NCBI GenBank assembly: GCA_035528895.1
Contig: DATKXS010000157.1
Span: 1,843-65,842, forward strand
Reading direction: 5' to 3'
Origin: Candidatus Desulfaltia sp.
Lineage (GTDB): Bacteria; Acidobacteriota; Aminicenantia; Aminicenantales; UBA8522
Length of the DNA stretch: 64,000 nucleotides
Shown: piece by piece, positions 5,708-52,937 of the stretch
How the letters are laid out: each line of letters starts with the position of its first letter
Numbering within the stretch: the first letter of the stretch is position 1
Program-made: the position numbers and the translations under genes
Notes under the pieces: generated by a model
What the model saw: the letters and a program-made list of their open reading frames with translations, nothing else
Database searches by the model: none
What the model was told of the DNA's origin: nothing

Positions 5708-5809
5708 GATGATACACTCCTTTATTGGATTCGATCGCAGTGACTAAAATTCAGTATATCAAAAAATGCCCGGCGAGCCCATTCCATTTATCCTAATTTA
5801 ACCATCTCC

Positions 5810-5952
5810 TTTTCCGTGATTTCTCTGGTCTCAGGAGGCCGCCCTATGCCCCCGCACCCCGGGGAACCAGTCACATCGGTTCCCCCCATCGGAAAATAGC
5901 CGATGGGTCCCCCCTCCGCTACGGGGGCCTTAGGTCGGCCTCCTGAGACCAA
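5810..5952. repeat. structured ~145-nt intergenic repeat element, copy A (nested inverted repeats, multi-hairpin)
   Basis: Near-perfect outer 20-nt inverted repeat ggtctcaggaggccgcccta / taggtcggcctcctgagacc. Inner hairpins ggggaacc..ggttcccc and ccatcgg..ccgatgg. About 85% identical to the copy at 51822-51972. Confidence 0.7.
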
Positions 5953-6048
5953 CACAAAGATCACCGACTGGGAAGTGCCTCCTAGCATAACGGCGGCGAA
6001 AAGTGTATAAGGAGCATAAAAAAATAGGTGCAATCAGGAGGCCCGGCC

Positions 6049-7757: not shown

Positions 7758-7923
7758 CGAGCAATCTTGTGTTTGACTGTTCGTTTGTCGTTTAATGCTG
7801 AGTGTGCTAAATTGGTAGCTCCCTCCGAGTCAAAGAGTCTAAGGCGGAGAAACCGTTAGGACTCGCGCCCGTCAGGGCAAGGCCGGAAACGGCCCTGCCT
7901 TCCGTGCTTGAAAAGGAGGCCAG

Positions 7924-9873
7924 ATGCAGCATCGGAACCGCGGTTTTTCCATCACCCAAACAAAGATGAGCGCCCTAATCTTAGGTCTCATTATCAGCCT
8001 TTCGTTCTCTTTTCCCGGCTGGAGCCAGGAAAAAACCAAGGAAAAGGAAGTCGACAAAAAGGCCCAAGAGACCAAAATCACAGAAGAGATCATCGTTGTC
8101 GGCCGGGCGCCGCGCGATCTTCCCGTGGCCACGGTCACAACGATCATGGTGACGCAGATCGACCAGCGCCGGCCCCTGGACCTGGCCGAAGCTATCAGGT
8201 ACGCCCCGGGCGTCATGGTGACCTTCGGCGACAAAGACACGTACACCCTCAAACTGCGGGGCATGGACGCCAAACGCATCGCCCTGCTCCTGGACGGCGT
8301 TCCCGAGGTTGAGCCTTACTACAGCACCTTCGACCTGAAAACGGTCACGGCCGCGGGGCTCGACTCGCTCCAGATCACCAAAGGCCCTTCTTCGGTCCTC
8401 TATGGTCCTAACACGCTGGGCGGCATCGTTAACGTCATCACCCGCCGGCCGGGCCCGGAGCCGCGCTTGGCGCTGACCGGCTCCTACGGCGAGCATTCCA
8501 CCCGGGGCATCATCCTCGACGGCGGCGCGCAGTGGAAGAAGTTCGCCCTGGCGGGGAGCGCCTCCTACCAGGATTCGAACCGTTTCGTTTATCCCGACGA
8601 GTCCGGCGAAAATGTCTCCCGGGCCAACAGCGACTATGAGCGGTTCAACCTGAACGCCAAACTTTACTACACGCCGAGCGACCGGACCGAGATCATGGTC
8701 AACGGCGGGATCTACCGCTCGAACTACGGCATGCCCGCCGCCCTGTCCGTGCAGAGGGCTCGCTACTGGAGGTTTAAGAACTGGGACCGCACCTCGTTCA
8801 ACGCCGGCGGATTCACCTCCCTGGGCGAGCGCTCCACGCTCCGGTTCCGGGCGTTCTACATCGGCTATCAGAACACCCTTAACCAGTGGAGGGACGCGGC
8901 GATGACGGTCCGACAGTTCGAGAGCACGTTCGACAACGAAGTATACGGCGCCTTCGGGCTGGCGGACTTGGCGGCCGGCGACGGGAACGCCCTCAAGCTG
9001 AGCCTTTACTTCCAGAAAGATATCGCCAGGTCTCAGGATGACGTCGGGCTGTCCTGGGATGAGTTTGACCAGTCCACCATGGCGGCGGGTCTGGAAGACC
9101 ATTATGACCTCGGCGACCGCTGGAAGCTCATCGGCGGCTTGAGCCTGGACTATATCGCCAAGTACTCCGGCGGAAGCACGACCAAGCTCAACCCGTTGAT
9201 CGGAATCAAGTTCTCCCCCGCCGAATATCTCGACCTCCATGCTTCGGCCTCCCTCAAGTCCAAGTTCCCCTCGATGCGTTCGATGTACTCGACAACAAGC
9301 GGCAACCCCGACCTCGTCTCTGAGCAGGGGACCTGTTTCGAACTGGGGGGGTCTTACAATCGGGGAATACTCGTCAGCGGGGCGATTTTCGCCTATGAGT
9401 TCAAGAACTTAATCGACAGCGTCCGCCTCGCCGACGGATCGCGCCGCTACTGGAACATCGGCCGGGCCCACATCAACGGAGCTGAGCTCCAGGTCCAGAA
9501 AGACTGGCGGCGGGTGAGCCTCCTGGCCAACTACACTTACCTCGACAACCGTAACGAAAGCGACGACCGGCCACTCGATGCCCTTTCCGATCACTCCCTG
9601 AACTTCGACGTCACGCTGAGGCCCGTCGACCGACTCCGCCTGACGGCTCTCGGGCTCTATGGGTCCAAGTCCCACTGGTTCGATTCCACAACGAGCGAAG
9701 TCCTCGAAATTCCTGCCTACTTCAGCCTGGATGCCGTGGCCGCTTACGACCTCCGGTTCTGCGAGGTCTTCGTTAAGGCGACCAATATCTTCAACGCCGA
9801 AGTCTATACCGAGCCCGGCTTTCCCTGGAGGGGCAGCTACTTCGAGGTCGGGGTCCGCCTGCCGATATTATAA
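7924..9873 (+). CDS. TonB-dependent outer membrane receptor
   Basis: AAGGAGG RBS, signal peptide, plug-domain motifs (DLAEAIRYAPGV, GMDAKRIALLLDGVP) and a beta-barrel with alternating aromatic residues toward the C-terminus. Confidence 0.85.
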   Translation: MQHRNRGFSITQTKMSALILGLIISLSFSFPGWSQEKTKEKEVDKKAQETKITEEIIVVGRAPRDLPVATVTTIMVTQIDQRRPLDLAEAIRYAPGVMVTFGDKDTYTLKLRGMDAKRIALLLDGVPEVEPYYSTFDLKTVTAAGLDSLQITKGPSSVLYGPNTLGGIVNVITRRPGPEPRLALTGSYGEHSTRGIILDGGAQWKKFALAGSASYQDSNRFVYPDESGENVSRANSDYERFNLNAKLYYTPSDRTEIMVNGGIYRSNYGMPAALSVQRARYWRFKNWDRTSFNAGGFTSLGERSTLRFRAFYIGYQNTLNQWRDAAMTVRQFESTFDNEVYGAFGLADLAAGDGNALKLSLYFQKDIARSQDDVGLSWDEFDQSTMAAGLEDHYDLGDRWKLIGGLSLDYIAKYSGGSTTKLNPLIGIKFSPAEYLDLHASASLKSKFPSMRSMYSTTSGNPDLVSEQGTCFELGGSYNRGILVSGAIFAYEFKNLIDSVRLADGSRRYWNIGRAHINGAELQVQKDWRRVSLLANYTYLDNRNESDDRPLDALSDHSLNFDVTLRPVDRLRLTALGLYGSKSHWFDSTTSEVLEIPAYFSLDAVAAYDLRFCEVFVKATNIFNAEVYTEPGFPWRGSYFEVGVRLPIL

Positions 9874-10669: not shown

Positions 10670-10705
10670 ATATAAAGAAAATTATAAAAGGTAAAGGAAA
10701 AGCCA

Positions 10706-10945
10706 ATGACGGTTGCTACTGTCTCATCAAAAAGCCAAATTACTCTTCCCGCAGCGGCCTGCCGGACTGTCGGCATCAAGCCTCGCGACCGAGTCCTGAT
10801 CGAAGTCAAAGAAGGGGAGATCGTAGTTCGGCCGGCCCCGGATATCATGAGTTTCGAAGGTTTCCTGGGCAAAGCTCTTCCCCGTGAAAAGGAGAAGGAG
10901 GCTATGGCCGGGTTCATCATGGAAGAGCGAAAAAAGCACGAATGA
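10706..10945 (+). CDS. vapB: AbrB/MazE/SpoVT-type antitoxin VapB
   Basis: N-terminus MTVATVSSKSQITLPAAACRTVGIKPRDRVLIEV fits the swapped-hairpin AbrB-like fold. Its stop overlaps the PIN gene start (ATGA). Confidence 0.85.
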   Translation: MTVATVSSKSQITLPAAACRTVGIKPRDRVLIEVKEGEIVVRPAPDIMSFEGFLGKALPREKEKEAMAGFIMEERKKHE

Positions 10946-11355
10946 GCACCTGGTTTGTCGACGCCAATGTTTTTCTCCGGTTTTTCACCGTCGATGACCA
11001 GGATCAGCATGGACGGGCCGCCCTCCTCATCTCCAGAGCATCTAAGGGCGAGATCCGGCTCGTTTGTGGTCCCCCGGTGCTCTTTGAGCTTTCCTGGACG
11101 CTGCGGGCAGCTTATAAAGTCTCCAGAGAAAAAGTCTTGGAAGTTCTCAGCGCCATTTATTCGATGTCCGGTCTTGTCATGACCGATGCCCATCTCGTGG
11201 AGACGGCCTTGACCCTTGCTGACACCGCCGGCGTAGAGTTCCCCGATGCCTATATCGCCGCCGGCGCCTTAGCCGCAGAGTGCGACGGCGTTGCCACCTT
11301 CAATCGAAAAGATTTTGCCCGGATGAAGATCAAGCTGGCCGATTTTGACGATTAA
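10942..11355 (+). CDS. vapC: PIN-domain ribonuclease toxin VapC
   Basis: A conserved PIN acidic residue sits near the N-terminus (FVDANVF). The ~137 aa size and translational coupling to the upstream antitoxin also fit. Confidence 0.85.
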   Translation: MSTWFVDANVFLRFFTVDDQDQHGRAALLISRASKGEIRLVCGPPVLFELSWTLRAAYKVSREKVLEVLSAIYSMSGLVMTDAHLVETALTLADTAGVEFPDAYIAAGALAAECDGVATFNRKDFARMKIKLADFDD

Positions 11356-11487
11356 ACGCGTCGGCCGTCGCGGACGACAACCTTGCCGTTCTTGATGACG
11401 TGGCGGATGGGGTTCCAGCCAAGCTGCAGGACAAAGAGCGTCGAGCCGACTATCGAGCTTCCGGGGTGGAAATCCGAATAGAAAATA
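11352..11487 (-). pseudogene. decayed 3'-terminal fragment of a hutI-like amidohydrolase gene (duplicate of the 13961-14275 region with a ~165-nt internal deletion)
   Basis: Translation ...[36 protein letters not shown] parallels the C-terminus of the 13961..15241 protein. The nucleotide segments 11364-11425 and 11426-11487 are ~85% identical to 13983-14046 and 14213-14275. Confidence 0.7.
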
Positions 11488-13960: not shown

Positions 13961-15241
13961 TTAAAAAGAAGAATTTCGTTTTCCGTCGCGGACGACGACC
14001 CGGCCGTTCTTGATGACGTGACGGATGGGGTTCCAGCCGAGCTCGTAGACTAGAGACGCATATTCGGGAACGTCGCAGAGCAGCATGTCCATCTTTTTTC
14101 CGACCTCGAGGCTGCCGATGCTGTCGTGTCGGCGCAGCGCAAAGGCCGCGTTGGCCGTTACCGCGTTGAGCGCTTCCTCGATGCTCATCTTCAAGAGATA
14201 CACGCCGAGCTGCATCACAAAGAGCATCGAGCCGATCATCGAGCTCCCGGGGTTGAAATCCGAGGCTAGGTTAAGGGCGGCGCCGGCATCGATGAGCCTT
14301 CGTGCCGGCGCCTTTTTTTCGAGCATCAGGAAAAAGGACACAGACGGCAGGAGGGTGGCCGCTGTTTCGCTCCGGGAAAGGACCCGGATTCCCTTTTCCG
14401 TGATGCTGATCAGATGGTCGGCCGAGGCTGCCCCGACCTCGGCCGCCAACTCTGCCCCTCCCAGGGCAGAGAATTCGTCGGCGTGGATCCTGATCTTGAA
14501 CCCGGCCCGCTTGGCCGCTTCGGCCAGCCGCCTGGTTTCTTCCACCGAAAACACACCCTTTTCGCAGAAGACATCGAAGAACTCGGCCAGATCCCGGCGG
14601 CGCACTTCAGGCATGATCTTCTTGATGAGGAGGTCGATGTAAGCGCTCTTCCGGGTCTTGTACTCCTTCGGGATATCGTGAGCGCCCATGAAAGTGGAAA
14701 CGATGTCCACCGGATGATGTCGAGCGGCCTCTTTCAGCACCTCGAGCTGCTTGATCTCGTCCTTGAGGTTCAAACCGTATCCGCTCTTGGCCTCGACCGT
14801 CGTCGCGCCGTGCAGCATCATCCGGTCGAGCCGCGCCAGGCACAGTGAGAGGAGGTCTTTTTTGGAAGCCCGGCGCGTCGCTGCGACCGTCGTTTGGATC
14901 CCCATCCCTTTCTTTGCCAGTTGCTGGTAGGTATATCCCCGCAGCCGCAGCCGGAATTCCTCGACCCGGTTCCCGGCGAAGGGGAGATGGGTATGGGAAT
15001 CGACGAACCCGGGCAGTCCGACCATCCCGGTCCCATCTAAGTGCACCGCCGAGCGTTCCGGTCGGACCTTGGCCCTGAAGTCCCTTTCCTTTCCGATGAA
15101 GACGATCCGGCCCCTGGAGGAGGCAATCCAGGCTTTATCCACCGGCCCGGCATCCTGCAGGGCGTTCTCCCTTTTCGGGATCGGTCCCCGGCAGGTGACG
15201 AGCCGGCGGCAGCCCTGGACGACGAGGTCAGCCGAGGTCAT
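13961..15241 (-). CDS. hutI: imidazolonepropionase-like amidohydrolase (HutI family)
   Basis: The [13 protein letters not shown] metal-binding motif and the overall pattern match HutI. Its start overlaps the ftsZ stop by 14 nt. Confidence 0.75.
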
Positions 15242-18555: not shown

Positions 18556-19944
18556 TCAGCGCTTTTCCTCCAGGGCGGCGATGATCTCGGGAACCGTCTT
18601 GGTGATGTTGCCCGCGCCTTGAGCCAGGATGATGTCTCCCGGCCGGGCCAGCCGCTTGAGGAGACGCGGCACTTTCTTGAGGTTGGGTTCGAAATGGACA
18701 TCCCTGTGGCCGAACCGTCGGATCTCCTCATAAAGCGCCTGGCCGGTGATCCCGGCGAGGGGCGCTTCGCCGGCCGGATAGACCTCGGTCACGACCAGGA
18801 CGTCCGCCTGGTTGAAGGCGGTGGCGAAACTGTCCATGAGCAGCGACAGCCGGGTGTAACGGTGCGGCTGGAAGACGACGATCAGGCGGCGCGCGAAGCC
18901 GCGCTTGGCCGCGTCCAGGGTGGCCCGGATCTCGGTCGGATGATGGCCGTAGTCCTCGATGATCATGATGTCGTCGACCTTTTTCTTCAGCTCGAACCGC
19001 CGGCCTGTCCCGGTATAGCTCTCCATCGCCCGGAGGATGACCTTCGGCGGGATGTCCAGGTCGAGCCCTGCGGCGACGGCGGCCATGGCGTTGGAGATGT
19101 TGTGCTTGCCCGGGACCTGGAGTTTCAGCGCCCCGAGCTTTTTCCCCTTGTAGTAGAGCGCCGAAGTGCTCCGGAACTCGGCGAAGCTGTGGTCGCGGGC
19201 GAAAACGTCCGCCTGGGTGGAGAAGCCGTAGGAAATGAGCCGGCGCTCGAGCTGGGGAATGAGGCTCTGCAGGTTCGGGTCGTCGAGACAGAGGATGATC
19301 GGGCAGTAGAAGGGGACCTTGTTGGCGAAGTTGACGAAGGTCCTCTTGATCTCCTCGACGGTCTGGTACTGGTCGAGATGTTCGTCGTCGATATTGGTCA
19401 GGACGGCGATGAACGGCGAGAGGTAGAGGAAGGAGCGGTCGCTTTCGTCGGCCTCGGCGACGATGAAATCGCCCGCCCCGAGCTTGGCGTTGGCGCCGAC
19501 GGTATTCAGCCGGCCGCCGACGATGATGGTGGGGTCGAACCCGCCGTGCTCGAGGACGAGGGCGATCATCGAGGTCGTCGTGGTCTTGCCGTGGGAACCG
19601 GCCACGGCGATACCGTACTTCATCCGCATCAGTTCGGCCAGCATCTCGGCCCGGGGGATCACCGGGATCTTGAGCCGGCGGGCCTCCTGGACCTCGACGT
19701 TGTCCTCCTTGACGGCCGAGGAGATGACGGCCACGTCCGCCCCGTGCACCCGTTCCCCCCGGTGGCCCTTATGCACCCGGGCCCCGAGGTCGGCCAGCCG
19801 GCGGGTGACATCGGTCGTCTGGAGGTCGGTCCCCGAGACCCTGTAGCCGAGGTTGATGAGCACTTCGGCGATACCGCTCATGCCCGTCCCGCCGATGCCG
19901 ATCATGTGGATGTGCTTGAGCTTACGGTATATTGACTTGACCAC
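18556..19944 (-). CDS. murC: UDP-N-acetylmuramate--L-alanine ligase
   Basis: N-terminus HMIGIGGTGMSGIAEVL and Mur ligase central and C-terminal motifs. Confidence 0.95.
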   Translation of the reverse strand: MVKSIYRKLKHIHMIGIGGTGMSGIAEVLINLGYRVSGTDLQTTDVTRRLADLGARVHKGHRGERVHGADVAVISSAVKEDNVEVQEARRLKIPVIPRAEMLAELMRMKYGIAVAGSHGKTTTTSMIALVLEHGGFDPTIIVGGRLNTVGANAKLGAGDFIVAEADESDRSFLYLSPFIAVLTNIDDEHLDQYQTVEEIKRTFVNFANKVPFYCPIILCLDDPNLQSLIPQLERRLISYGFSTQADVFARDHSFAEFRSTSALYYKGKKLGALKLQVPGKHNISNAMAAVAAGLDLDIPPKVILRAMESYTGTGRRFELKKKVDDIMIIEDYGHHPTEIRATLDAAKRGFARRLIVVFQPHRYTRLSLLMDSFATAFNQADVLVVTEVYPAGEAPLAGITGQALYEEIRRFGHRDVHFEPNLKKVPRLLKRLARPGDIILAQGAGNITKTVPEIIAALEEKR

Positions 19945-26003: not shown

Positions 26004-27472
26004 CAGGGCTTTCCCTCCAGAGTCCCGAGGATCGAGCGGACGACTTCGGTGTCGTCGAAATGGATTGTCCTGTCCTTGAAAATCTGATAGTCCTCGTGCC
26101 CTTTGCCGGCGATGAGAACGTAATCGCCCTTCCGGGACTCGGCCAGGGCCTGAGCGATGGCTTCTTTCCGGTCGGGAATGATCCTGTAGTTCTTCGCGCC
26201 CTTGCTGATGAAACCCTGTTCGATGTCGGCGATGATGGCCGGCGGGTCCTCGGAGCGGGGGTTGTCGGAAGTGATGAAGGTCTGGTCGGCGAGGGCCGCG
26301 GCGACCTCTCCCATCCTCGGTCTCTTGGTCTTGTCCCGGTCCCCGCCCGCTCCGAAAACGAGCAGGATGCGTTGGGGCTTTAGCTCCCGGATGGCTTCCA
26401 ACAGGCTGCGCATGGCCTGGTCGGTGTGGGCGTAGTCGACAAAAACATGGAAGCCCAACGTGTTCTCCACCTTCTCCAACCTCCCCGGGATGGTCTTGAG
26501 AGCCGAGATCCCATCTTTGATAGTCGACGCGGGGATGTTCAGGGCCAGGCCGGTAGCCACGGCCGCCAGGATGTTGTAGAGATTGTGCTTGCCCATCAGC
26601 GCCGAGCAGATCTTCACCTGTCCCCCTGGATAGTCCACTTCCGCTTTGATACCGGTCTCCGCGAAGCGGCACTGCTCGGCCCGGACGATCGCCGCCGGCT
26701 CGAGGCCGAAGGATATGGTGGTCAGGGGGAGCTCGGCCATCAGGCGATTTCCCCAGGGATCGTCCAGGTTGACGACCGCCGTTCGCTTCTTGGCGTTCAG
26801 GAAGAAGAGCCTTTTCTTGGCCTCGAAGTAATCCTCCATCGAGGCGTGGTAATCGAGGTGCTCGGCGCTCAGGTTGGTGAAGACCGCGATGTCGAAATGC
26901 ACTCCCCAGACCCGCTTGAGATCCAGGGCGTGGGAGGAGACCTCGATGAGGCAGTGGGTCACGCCTTGCTCCAGCATCTCGCTCATCATCCGCTGCAGGT
27001 CGGGGGCTTCCGGAGTCGTCCGGGGGGCCGGCTGGACCATCTTCGGCCAGCGGTAGTTGATGGTCCCGATGACGCCGGGCCGGAATTCCCCCTTCTGGAG
27101 GATGGACTCGAGGAGATAAGTCAAGGTCGTTTTGCCCTTGGTCCCGGTGATGCCGATGACTTTCAAGCCCATCGAGGGGTGGCCGTAGAAGTTGGCCGCG
27201 GCCAGGGCCAGAGCCTCCCGGACGTCCGGCGTCTGGACCCATGGAGATGTCCACTTCTGCGGTCCGGGTCGGTCCGAGAGGATGGCCTCGGCGCCGCTCC
27301 GCCGGGCCTCTTCGATGAATTTGAACCCGTCCTTTTTTTCTCCCAAAATAGCGGCGAAAAGGAATCCCGGCTTGACCTGCTTGGAGGAGTGGGTGAGGCC
27401 GAGGATTTCCGTCTCGCCGTTTCCGCTGAACTGGCAGTTCGGGACGTCCTTGAACAGGTCCTTGAGCTTCAT
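26003..27472 (-). CDS. murE: UDP-N-acetylmuramoyl-L-alanyl-D-glutamate--2,6-diaminopimelate ligase
   Basis: Motifs GITGTKGKTT and DYAHT, and a DNPR-type motif (SDNPRSEDP) consistent with meso-DAP specificity. Confidence 0.93.
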   Translation of the reverse strand: MKLKDLFKDVPNCQFSGNGETEILGLTHSSKQVKPGFLFAAILGEKKDGFKFIEEARRSGAEAILSDRPGPQKWTSPWVQTPDVREALALAAANFYGHPSMGLKVIGITGTKGKTTLTYLLESILQKGEFRPGVIGTINYRWPKMVQPAPRTTPEAPDLQRMMSEMLEQGVTHCLIEVSSHALDLKRVWGVHFDIAVFTNLSAEHLDYHASMEDYFEAKKRLFFLNAKKRTAVVNLDDPWGNRLMAELPLTTISFGLEPAAIVRAEQCRFAETGIKAEVDYPGGQVKICSALMGKHNLYNILAAVATGLALNIPASTIKDGISALKTIPGRLEKVENTLGFHVFVDYAHTDQAMRSLLEAIRELKPQRILLVFGAGGDRDKTKRPRMGEVAAALADQTFITSDNPRSEDPPAIIADIEQGFISKGAKNYRIIPDRKEAIAQALAESRKGDYVLIAGKGHEDYQIFKDRTIHFDDTEVVRSILGTLEGKP

Positions 27473-35171: not shown

Positions 35172-35264
35172 GACGAACCTCCTCGGTTTTTGTTGGGGAG
35201 ACCATAAATATCAGAAACGGCAGCCCAAATCAACCAGGCTCAGGAATCGCTGCGGGTAATCATT

Positions 35265-35306
35265 TCTGTTTTGGTGATTCCATTGGTCGCAGGAGGCCGC
35301 CCCAAG
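35265..35306. repeat. truncated copy (5' arm only) of the structured intergenic repeat family
   Basis: ttttggtgattccattggtcgcaggaggccgcccc matches the first ~40 nt of the elements at 5810 and 51822, then diverges. Confidence 0.55.
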
Positions 35307-47319: not shown

Positions 47320-47391
47320 TGGGCCTACCAGGATTCGAACCTGGGACCTGCCGGTTATGAGCCGGTAGCTCTACCGCTGAGCTATAGGCCC
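47320..47391 (-). tRNA. tRNA-Met (anticodon CAT; an elongator or Ile2-lysidine type cannot be excluded)
   Basis: Minus-strand read GGGCCTATAGCTCAGCGGTAGAGCTACCGGCTCATAACCGGCAGGTCCCAGGTTCGAATCCTGGTAGGCCCA folds into a cloverleaf with a 7-bp fully paired acceptor stem, TTCGAAT T-loop and CAT anticodon. CCA is not encoded. Its own TTGACT-17-TATAAG promoter ends 8 nt upstream. Confidence 0.85.
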
Positions 47392-51019: not shown

Positions 51020-51799
51020 CTAAAGATGATTGATCAGGCTGGCCAGGTAGGCGGCCCCGAACCCGTTATCGATGTTCACCACGGCCACACCGCCGGGGCA
51101 GGAGTTGAGCATGGCCAGGAGGGCCGAGATGCCCTGGAAGCTCGCTCCATAGCCGACGCTGGTGGGGACGGCGATGATGGGCGCGCTGACCAGCCCGGCC
51201 AAAACGCTGGGGAGAGCGCCCTCCATGCCCGCCACGGCGATGATCAGACGGGCTTTTCTGACTTTCTCCATCTCCCCGAAGAGGCGATGAAGCCCGGCCA
51301 CGCCGACGTCGTAGATCCTTTCGGCTTCGTTACCCAGCATCTCGCAGGTCACGAAGGCCTCCTCAGCCACTGGGATATCCGATGTTCCGGCCGTGATGAT
51401 GACGATCTTCCCCCGGCCCGGCGCCGGGCGCTTTTTTTTCAGGCTAATGGTTTTTCCCAGGGGATCGTAGCGACAGCCGGGGATCTTCCGCCTGATCTTC
51501 TGATAGATCCGAGGACCGGCCCGGGTGATGAGCAGACTGTTTCCCCTTTTGCAGATCTCCCGGGCGATCTTGATGATCTGTCCATCGGTTTTTCCCTGGC
51601 CGAAGATGATCTCGGGGAACCCTTTCCGGACTTCCCGGTGGTGGTCGATCTTGGCGAAACCGAGGTCCTGGTAGGGATAATCCTTCAATTTCTGGAAGGC
51701 CTTCCGGGAAGACATTTTCCCCAAAGAGACCTTTTCTAGGACCTCTTCCAACTCCGTTTTCATGCCCGATATATTACCATACCCGGGGCCGTTGAACAA
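51020..51799 (-). CDS. LarB-like PurE-family protein (COG1691; nickel-pincer cofactor biosynthesis carboxylase/hydrolase homolog)
   Basis: C-terminal PurE-like fold with KIVIITAGTSD and AVAGMEGALPSVLAG, and an N-terminal ~100-aa extension as in LarB. No larC/larE is seen nearby. Confidence 0.6.
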   Translation of the reverse strand: MFNGPGYGNISGMKTELEEVLEKVSLGKMSSRKAFQKLKDYPYQDLGFAKIDHHREVRKGFPEIIFGQGKTDGQIIKIAREICKRGNSLLITRAGPRIYQKIRRKIPGCRYDPLGKTISLKKKRPAPGRGKIVIITAGTSDIPVAEEAFVTCEMLGNEAERIYDVGVAGLHRLFGEMEKVRKARLIIAVAGMEGALPSVLAGLVSAPIIAVPTSVGYGASFQGISALLAMLNSCPGGVAVVNIDNGFGAAYLASLINHL

Positions 51800-51821
51800 A
51801 ATCAGGTGATGAGGCGCGAGT

Positions 51822-51972
51822 ATTTCCGTTTGGGTGATTCTATTGGGCGCAGGAAGCCGCCCTCGGCCCCCGCACCCCGGGGAACCAGTCCCGTCGGTTC
51901 CCCCCGTCGGAGAAGCCGACGGGTCCCCCCTCCGCTACGGGGGCTTCAGGGCGGCTTCCTGCGCCCAATATT
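51822..51972. repeat. structured ~150-nt intergenic repeat element, copy B
   Basis: Perfect 21-nt outer inverted repeat ttgggcgcaggaagccgccct / agggcggcttcctgcgcccaa, plus gcccccg/cgggggc and inner hairpins ggggaacc..ggttcccc and ccgtcgg..ccgacgg. Homologous to copy A, with compensatory stem substitutions. Confidence 0.7.
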
Positions 51973-52070
51973 ATTTATATTATCCATTCATAATTGGTTC
52001 CTCATGATCCTGTCCCGGGCGATTGACAGGAAATGCCGGTCGTAGAGTATACTAGTGACCGATCAGAGAA

Positions 52071-52937
52071 ATGTTCAGGAAGCAGACGCTCAAGCGGGAG
52101 ATTTCGTTCTCCGGTGTCGGCATTCACTCCGGGGAGCAGGTCAGTTTAACCCTCAAGCCGTCCCACTCCGGGAAGATCCTGTTCCGACGGCTGGACCTGG
52201 GCGGGCTGGAGGTCGAGCCGGATCCCCGGAGGATCGACGCCTTGAACTGCTCCTGCCTGGTCTTCGAGTCGGGCCGCATCCAGACTCTGGAGCATCTCAT
52301 GGCGGCTTTGTACGTGCTCGGCCTTGACAGTCTGGACGTCGAGCTCCAAGGGAGCGAGATCCCCATCCTGGACGGAAGCGCGGCCCCTCTGGCCCGGGCC
52401 ATCCTGGAGGCCGGCGTCGTTCCGACCCGCCGGAAGAGACAGGTGGTCCGCCTGCTCAAGCCGCACACTCTCGAAGAAGCAGGGGCCAGGTTGTCCTTCT
52501 CGCCCGCCCCCGACCTCAAGGTATCCTATGCCATCGATTTTACCCACCCGCTCATCGGCCGGCAGGAGATATCCTTCGACCTGACCCGGGAAGTTTTTCT
52601 TCAAGAGATCGCCCCGGCCCGGACGTTCGGATTTTTGAAGGACGTGGCCGAGCTCCAGAAGCGCGGCCTGGCCCTCGGTGGGACGATGGACAACGCCGTG
52701 GTTCTCGATGAAGACAGGGTCATCAGCGGTTCCCTCCGCTTCCGGGACGAATTCGTCCGCCACAAAGTGCTGGACCTCATCGGCGACCTGGCTCTCTTCG
52801 GACATCCTCTGCTCGGCCACTTTCAGGCGGAACGGGCCGGCCATCGCCTCCATCTCCGGGCCGTCCTCTTCCTCCTCGAGAACCCCGGTTTCTGGGCTTT
52901 CGAGGAGACGGTTGCCCCCCGCTTCCTCAGGGGCTGA
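52071..52937 (+). CDS. lpxC: UDP-3-O-acyl-N-acetylglucosamine deacetylase
   Basis: N-terminus LKREISFSGVGIHSGE and the HKxLD zinc-binding region (FVRHKVLDLIGDL). Confidence 0.9.
   Translation: MFRKQTLKREISFSGVGIHSGEQVSLTLKPSHSGKILFRRLDLGGLEVEPDPRRIDALNCSCLVFESGRIQTLEHLMAALYVLGLDSLDVELQGSEIPILDGSAAPLARAILEAGVVPTRRKRQVVRLLKPHTLEEAGARLSFSPAPDLKVSYAIDFTHPLIGRQEISFDLTREVFLQEIAPARTFGFLKDVAELQKRGLALGGTMDNAVVLDEDRVISGSLRFRDEFVRHKVLDLIGDLALFGHPLLGHFQAERAGHRLHLRAVLFLLENPGFWAFEETVAPRFLRG

Follow-up and report, generated by a model that had tools for sequence, protein, structure and literature searches.

A larB-like gene with an AIRC domain on the minus strand and lpxC on the plus strand are transcribed away from each other in the window, by which we mean the whole stretch of 64,000 nucleotides that was analyzed. 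The spacer between the two genes contains a palindromic repeat, here called copy B, whose interior is more than 75% G+C and across which only short overlapping open reading frames of 57 to 79 aa can be read. An earlier note, made from the letters of this DNA, had named these flanking genes and had described an outer stem with hairpins nested inside it, and we found both as described. The outer inverted repeat is 23 nt long and 100% complementary, and it encloses the other helices of the element (Table 1).

Table 1. Positions of the repeat, its parts and the neighboring blocks in the window, and of the loci with inserts in hairpin P3
Feature	Position	Strand	Remarks
Copy B, whole family-1 MITE	51812-52001	+	Set by aligning canonical copies in which the ends and target duplications (TSDs) are clear
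Possible TSD remnants of copy B	51803-51811; 52002-52008		TCAGGTGAT; TCATGAT
Copy B, left terminal/subterminal region	51816-51840	+	GCGAGTATTTCCGTTTGGGTGATTCTA, homologous to consensus GTAAGCATCTCCGTTTnnGTGATTCCA
Copy B, P1 5' arm (outer stem)	51841-51863	+	23-nt perfect inverted repeat; covaries family-wide
Copy B, P1 3' arm	51948-51970	+	Inverted-repeat partner of 51841-51863
Copy B, asymmetric conserved core	51864-51947	+	P1b, P2, P3 and conserved single-stranded tract
Copy B, P1b	51866-51872 / 51938-51944	+	GCCCCCG/CGGGGGC
Copy B, hairpin P2 (hairpin 2)	51879-51903	+	GGGGAACC (51879-51886) / GGTTCCCC (51896-51903), loop AGTCCCGTC
Copy B, hairpin P3 (hairpin 3)	51904-51922	+	CCGTCGG (51904-51910), loop AGAAG, CCGACGG (51916-51922)
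Copy B, C-rich conserved single-stranded tract	51923-51937	+	GTCCCCCCTCCGCTA
Copy B, right subterminal region	51971-52001	+	Degenerate, AT-rich
Copy A, full family-1 MITE	5798-5982	+	Core 5834-5945; between divergent genes
Copy C, core-less relic	about 35254-35302	+	Left end and left arm only; between divergent genes
A/B compensatory pair	51847/51964		G-C>T-A
A/B compensatory pair	51849/51962		G-C>T-A
A/B compensatory pair	51855/51956		A-T>G-C
A/B compensatory pair	51906/51920		G-C>A-T
AIRC-side block	51765-51802		GATATATTACCATACCCGnGGCCGTTGA
lpxC-side block	52022-52056		GATTGACA-N19-TATACT
P3-insert locus L036	2995-3118
P3-insert locus L113	9305-9475
P3-insert locus L017	6843-7060
P3-insert locus L051	1-203
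P3-insert locus L067		-

The boundaries of copy B are approximate (+/-6 nt) because its ends are degenerate. In the window copies, the conserved element reaches about 25 nt to the left beyond the outer stem, and this left region is kept in all three of them and in L001 to L004 (L-numbers are labels of the loci or contigs taken into the comparison). On the right, what the earlier note had called an AT-rich tail stands where canonical copies have their right end, ATCATAAAGATCACATATTTGGAGATGCTTCC. The orthologous copy L132 keeps the canonical end, which is followed there by TCAGGTGAA, and the distance from the arm to the promoter-like block of lpxC is the same in copy B and in L132.

Two copies of the element had been reported from the window. 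There are indeed two full copies, A and B, but a third and partial one, copy C, is also present, and all three are housed in spacers between divergent genes. The sequences quoted for copy A and its differences from copy B were correct, and from outer stem to outer stem (5823-5952) copy A has the layout and orientation of copy B. The remnants of its TSD, TATCCTAAT and TAGCATAAC, match at 6/9 positions, while copy B has a degenerate remnant only. The homology of copy C ends after GCCGCCCC; TGTGATAAAAAGGCTCTTCC, considered as a relic of its right end, was rejected for want of alignment support.

Six base pairs differ between copies A and B. Four of these changed on both sides and still pair, in agreement with the compensatory changes claimed before, and two are broken. 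However, the differences are not concentrated in paired positions as had been stated, since substitutions fall in 11/90 paired and 7/40 unpaired positions and are joined by a 2-nt indel. The predicted folds of copies A and B are much more stable than those of shuffled sequence, whichever strand is folded (z, -8 to -9.7), as expected of any long palindrome. A covariance model found just two sites in the window, copies A and B, which scored 124.6 and 117.4 bits on the plus strand and 17 to 19 bits on the minus strand, and the gap between the strands shows that the core is truly asymmetric.

The AIRC-lpxC spacer in related genomes

The assignment of the window to Candidatus Aminicenantales was confirmed by LpxC homologs. 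The four assemblies of the window's strain are identical at the AIRC-lpxC locus. The core is present there in the window, in L125 and in L132/L133 (LpxC identity, 87%), the last of which carry a canonical family-1 copy in the same place and orientation as the window. It is absent from L134 (84%), which has a clean 112-nt spacer without the element, and from L131 (88%) and L129/L130 (94%), in which at most a short relic-like sequence is found.

The lpxC-side block next to copy B is kept in 7/7 aligned sequences. In the AIRC-side block, GATATATTACCATAC...GCCGTTGA is common to the window, L131 and L134, the three sequences to which this comparison is limited, the other contigs beginning downstream of the block. 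Both blocks are kept across the orthologs that cover them, at 84 to 100% LpxC identity, and they are probably the two divergent promoters. Since the core is absent in relatives that keep these promoter-like blocks, copy B is best read as an insertion into a spacer of about 30 nt between back-to-back putative promoter regions, where it is dispensable. The element is not a conserved regulator of lpxC, and nothing ties copy B to lpxC regulation; a regulator tied to lpxC or larB is contradicted by the close relatives that have both blocks and no core.

Upstream of lpxC in L129 (positions 1-110), a different palindrome, GAGCCCGTTTTC...GAAAACGGGCTC, stands in the position of the MITE core. The AIRC-lpxC intergenic spacer seems to be prone to rearrangement.

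The element was accompanied neither by an Rfam family nor by a linked gene, a promoter or a terminator. Rfam 15 gave no family on it in the window (at gathering and at E<=10) or at 12 diverse loci (at gathering), and the best sub-threshold match was rncO, with 20 bits against a gathering value of 43. A simple scan of 51700-52120 returned no sigma-70-like promoter; it missed the lpxC-side block because the spacer of that block is 19 nt. An ECF-sigma-like promoter in the core (GGAACC-N18-CGTC) was rejected because its CGTC falls in the variable hairpin P3. An intrinsic terminator was likewise rejected: copy B has one weak match (the right arm plus AATATTATTT), and copy A, like most other copies, lacks a U-tract.

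Family 1 and its dispersed copies

A scan of metagenomes with the core pattern returned at least 120 loci, which are dispersed, and the element is therefore not specific to the lpxC locus. The same pattern had no match in viral contigs, PLSDB plasmids gave no match either, and no paper was found in the literature by the exact element sequence or for Aminicenantes MITEs. A pattern of the left flank and arm had four matches in genome collections, of which two came from MAGs of Candidatus Aminicenantales and the others from bins that carry the label Eubacteriales. The "uncultured Eubacteriales" MAGs L002 and L003 (CAZYWP010000013.1 and CAYOZW010000042.1) contain canonical Aminicenantes-type family-1 elements, and the Eubacteriales label of these bins is probably wrong.

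Canonical family-1 copies are 170 to 185 bp long and non-coding, and a long variant reaches about 270 bp. Their terminal inverted repeats, G[TG]AAGCATCTC...GAGATGCTTCC, are degenerate in copy B. The family-1 TSD is 9 bp long and matches at >=8/9 positions in 8/12 copies, a result that 0/5000 permutations of the flank partners reached. The match is 9/9 in L038 (GGTGTCAGG), L044 (AAAGTCAAA), L106 (AAAAAGAAT) and L027, and 8/9 in four more copies. With terminal inverted repeats, 9-bp TSDs, dispersed copies and presence or absence at orthologous sites, the family-1 element is a MITE, an outcome that the earlier note had itself named as one that would overturn its reading, and this MITE carries a nested, exchangeable and invertible hairpin module.

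We consider it probable, at roughly 70%, that copy B is an old and partly decayed insertion of this family-1 MITE, which is common in Candidatus Aminicenantales genomes. Some observations fit this explanation less well. The ends and the TSD of copy B are degenerate, and the near-invariant asymmetric core of 80 nt exceeds the needs of a passive palindrome. The wobble bias described below marks one strand as special, for which an RNA role could also account, and function, in place of a target preference, could underlie the excess of family 1 between divergent genes. Strict family-1 copies lie in 10 divergent, 3 tandem and 0 convergent spacers, against a divergent background of 31% by intergenic length. 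This enrichment is restricted to family 1; for the superfamily as a whole, which occupies divergent, tandem and convergent spacers, the distribution did not differ from the proportions of intergenic length (chi-square about 2.7).

The 441 neighboring open reading frames formed no cluster of more than 4 and included no recurrent family. A DDE-type transposase whose gene lies at another place in the genome may move the family-1 chassis in trans. We draw this suggestion from the TSDs only, because no autonomous IS with family-1 ends (paired 0.4 to 4 kb apart) was found in about 1 Mb of scattered contigs and no transposase adjoins any copy.

The edges of contigs hold 42/130 cores, and in the Logan contigs L127 and L128, from the window's own strain, position 1 lies inside the core, at the break between CTA and CGGGGGC. 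The repeat thus breaks metagenome assemblies, with contigs ending within the core.

A 40-nt mini-element in L101 (2630-2670, minus strand) consists of two family-1 ends joined directly (AAGCATCTCCGATCGTATGATTCGTGGGGAGATGC) and lies 6 nt upstream of a gene start. Read outward, the ends of the family-1 MITE contain GGAGATG, which is Shine-Dalgarno-like plus ATG.

The arm-core-arm module, its pairing and its inversion

The center of the MITE is a separable foldback module of about 125 nt, in which two covarying P1 arms surround an asymmetric core of about 80 nt made up of P1b, hairpin P2, the variable hairpin P3 and a conserved C-rich single-stranded tract. The core is near-invariant across different chassis and across genomes of 44 to 62% GC, while the arms, and all sequence external to them, vary from group to group. 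For P2, the invariance is in part an effect of ascertainment, because P2 was the search pattern, and P2 does vary among the loci that were found by the covariance model only.

The same central module occurs in a second family of 22 copies, the ends of which are unrelated to those of family 1 and read CTAATAYnAACGCAATAA...TTATTGCGTTnRTATTAG (CTAG/TA-type). When the listed family-2 sequences were tallied, the C and the G next to the terminal TA turned out to be only about 65 to 70% conserved. These ends recall IS630/Tc1-type elements, which we take to suggest TA duplication in a CTAG target. Family-2 copies lie in 3 divergent, 10 tandem and 8 convergent contexts. An identical arm, GCGGCCTGRAGCCGCCCT, was found in a long family-1-like chassis and in a family-2 chassis. 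Orthologs of the window and the comparison genomes have 58 to 84% protein identity, so families 1 and 2 sit in related genomes.

The module is also found on its own. About 14 solo modules are hairpins in unique sequence, and L030 has a tandem array (10685-11224) of four core units with a period of about 146 nt and AT-rich spacers, the fourth unit being degenerate. A gene ends just before this array, which is closely followed by a tRNA gene (11317-11389). At five loci (Table 1), P3 is replaced by inserts of 34 to 120 nt, after which the core resumes. The inserts comprise at least two unrelated sequences that are themselves palindromic, and P3 represents a variable arm or else a hotspot of nested small insertions.

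Pairing was analyzed with a hand-specified P1/P1b/P2/P3 structure and the covariance model. RNAalifold on a plain MAFFT alignment was set aside; it recovered P2 only, because the arms differ in sequence and length. Across 76 copies, 87.8% of the cells in the specified structure were paired, compared with 83.1% in shuffles and 36 to 60% when the partners were slid. Double changes occurred in 15 pairs, a number that 0/500 shuffles reached. In P1, 11/12 pairs covaried, and the P3 pair 60/78 was G-C in 44 copies, A-U in 17 and unpaired in 12.

The earlier note had taken such covariation as consistent with selection on the fold. Pairing is maintained across the 76 copies, but selection on an RNA fold is not thereby shown, because the arms of a DNA palindrome recombine and can copy changes from one arm to the other, so that covariation alone is no proof of it. 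The matched changes between copies A and B may have arisen as the two arms of the palindrome evolved in concert. This could occur by arm-to-arm recombination or template switching, the same process that would flip the core, by selection keeping the foldback in single-stranded form, or by both. Palindromic covariation of such repeats can mislead screens for structured RNAs, and a false lead is removed in this case: the matched A/B changes looked like an lpxC regulatory RNA and are in fact part of a mobile palindromic repeat, which was lost in close relatives.

The mismatches in the stems are biased. We counted 138 A.C and 67 G.T mismatches in P1, and 17 and 4 in P3; in the model-based alignment, the numbers were 110 and 64 (p = 6e-4), or 47 and 19 when counted per copy. 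The excess of A.C over G.T indicates that the wobble-tolerant strand is the complement of the window's plus strand. This bias is modest, and there are also 165 transversion mismatches (about 5% of stem cells). The mismatch spectrum looks more like that of decaying selfish DNA than that of a tightly constrained RNA.

These data also bear on whether the element is a structured cis-regulatory RNA or a small RNA under fold selection, such as an attenuator, an insulator or a processing or stability element for its neighbors. The strong covariation in P1 and P3, the conserved loops and junctions and the very stable predicted folds would suit an RNA of this kind, as would the wobble bias, which is modest but significant and favors one strand, and the large inserts in P3, which such an RNA would tolerate in a variable arm. 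We nevertheless consider it unlikely. The element has neither an Rfam match nor a conserved promoter or terminator, its neighbors are unrelated, and it occupies divergent, tandem and convergent sites in both orientations, with flips of orientation within a chassis. In tandem contexts, the wobble-tolerant strand was antisense to the genes in 16 cases and sense in 8. The loss of the core at the lpxC locus of close relatives that kept the promoters, and the share of transversion mismatches in the stems, also argue against an RNA function.

When the asymmetric ends of the chassis, which have T-rich spacers on one strand, are taken as the reference, the arm-core-arm segment occurs in both orientations, and does so in both arm subfamilies, with 17 flip and 9 flop copies. 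The loci L077 and L093 are orthologous, with flanks that are 92% identical, colinear outer MITE parts and TTCCATAAC on both sides. Between them the arm-core-arm segment is inverted, and a 2-nt asymmetry of the arms swaps sides with it, which shows inversion in place by exchange within the arms.

Invertons, for example fimS, hin and those of Bacteroides, are invertible promoters that produce phase variation. Like them, the module is a segment bounded by inverted repeats of about 20 bp (19 to 23 bp) that is found both ways, including at one orthologous locus (L077/L093). It might accordingly be asked whether a site-specific recombinase flips the arm-core-arm segment as a phase-variable switch that alters the flanking divergent genes, many of them for secreted proteins; the enrichment of family 1 between divergent genes and the signal-peptide-like N-termini of several neighbors, as read from their sequence, would agree with this. 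Unlike an inverton, however, the invertible segment contains no promoter-like sequence and belongs to a high-copy mobile repeat, and no invertase or recombinase gene recurred among the 441 neighboring open reading frames. The single inversion that was seen separates two lineages that are about 8% diverged and are not subpopulations of one strain, and the four assemblies of the window's strain share one module orientation. Since a switch would also make little sense in the solo and array modules, we regard this explanation as very unlikely.

The inversion also resembles the hairpin-associated small inversions and flip/flop isomers that are known from organelle and viral replication contexts, namely the non-coding hairpin loops of chloroplasts and the terminal hairpins of parvoviruses. 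As in those cases, the asymmetric interior of a palindrome inverts via its own arms without a dedicated site-specific system, but here the palindrome is the center of a bacterial MITE.

Relation to bacterial repeats and the role of the core

The known bacterial MITEs include Correia/NEMIS of Neisseria, ERIC, RUP and Nezha. The element resembles bacterial MITEs in being non-coding and 70 to 300 bp long, in having terminal inverted repeats, a TSD and numerous intergenic copies, which are dispersed and fold into long hairpins, and in its presence/absence polymorphism between strains. It differs from them in that its center is a conserved asymmetric module common to a MITE family with unrelated ends, that this module occurs solo and flips in place, and that the host belongs to an uncultured phylum. 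Background on bacterial MITEs is also given in PMC3733652.

A REP unit is a simple stem-loop of 20 to 40 bp, one end of which bears an unpaired tag, GTAG or CGTC (PMC3733652). REP dimers nested at the center of longer palindromes have been documented (Di Nocera et al. 2013, PMC3733652), and the same paper describes Acidobacteria-specific TIRYT transposases with dispersed TIR families. Like REP, BIME and REPIN sequences, the modules are GC-rich extragenic palindromes that sometimes form arrays, nest in the center of palindromes and have GTAG/CGTC-like motifs beside hairpins, and a strand-specific mobilization through a single strand can be proposed for them. On the wobble-tolerant strand, TAGCGG, usually as GTAG, is invariant at the foot of P1b, and CGTC motifs stand at the feet of hairpins, in the P3 stem and the P2 loop. 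The GTAG (CTAC on the plus strand) sits inside the multiloop beside P1b and is replaced by ATAG in some families. REP sites lie mainly between convergent or unidirectional genes, downstream of open reading frames; family 1 prefers divergent genes, and family 2 is closer to REP in this respect.

The main alternative is that arm-core-arm is an independent REP-like selfish element. An HUH/Y1 enzyme of the RAYT/TIRYT type would recognize one of its strands, the module would land in the centers of palindromes (hairpin tips), those of MITEs included, with the chassis as a mere carrier, and the flip and flop states would be re-insertions or inversions. We regard this as possible, although we would not call it probable. 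It would explain a module with the same arms in two unrelated chassis, as a solo unit and arrayed in tandem, the two orientations, the strand asymmetry of the mismatches, the invariant motifs at the feet of P1b and the hairpins, and P3 as a hotspot for further small insertions, and the nested REP dimers and TIRYT transposases cited above are precedents for it. On the other hand, the composite unit of about 125 nt, with three helices and a conserved junction, is far above the size of a REP, and its GTAG is not an unpaired terminal tag that ends a simple stem-loop. The arms also correlate for the most part with the subfamily of the chassis, as they would if modules generally moved along with their chassis. 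No Y1/HUH transposase and no RAYT/TIRYT gene was matched among 6365 open reading frame segments from about 1 Mb of scattered contigs with phmmer (E. coli RAYT as query) and a scan for the HUH...Y motif, which is a weak negative.

In the MITE reading that we prefer, the element is a selfish palindromic repeat. Its core would then most likely be a cis-acting recognition site, acting through one DNA strand, for the module's own propagation or retention as selfish DNA, and less likely a host regulatory RNA. If the core proves to be the recognition site of a structure-specific enzyme, it would provide a mechanistic link between REP-like and MITE-like elements. A MITE family is thereby documented in an uncultured phylum (Aminicenantes), and its modularity is unusual, as one conserved, asymmetric hairpin module occurs in MITE chassis that differ in their target duplications and have unrelated ends, solo, arrayed and in invertible form.

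A more speculative proposal, which we hold to be rather unlikely, is that the core (GGGGAACC-AGTCCCGTC-GGTTCCCC, the variable P3 and the tract CCCCCCTCCGCTAYG) is an undescribed functional structured nucleic acid, either single-stranded DNA or an RNA on the G-rich strand. It could be a cargo captured by different Aminicenantes MITE families, or an invader of palindrome centers by way of a structure-specific enzyme, and inversion in place would toggle the strand that carries the active form. If this were true, the module would represent a new class of nested mobile module and not an ordinary MITE interior.

Other features were seen elsewhere in the window. A direct repeat of 61 nt with 92% identity occurs at 11365-11425 and 13983-14043, 2.6 kb apart in coding-looking sequence, and a pair of 63 nt with 76% identity at 19049-19111 and 26532-26594; both pairs probably mark paralogous genes. 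A Moco (molybdenum/tungsten cofactor) riboswitch aptamer (RF01055) lies at 7811-7934 on the plus strand, with 64 bits against a gathering value of 36, and a tRNA gene (RF00005, 71 bits) at 47320-47391 on the minus strand.
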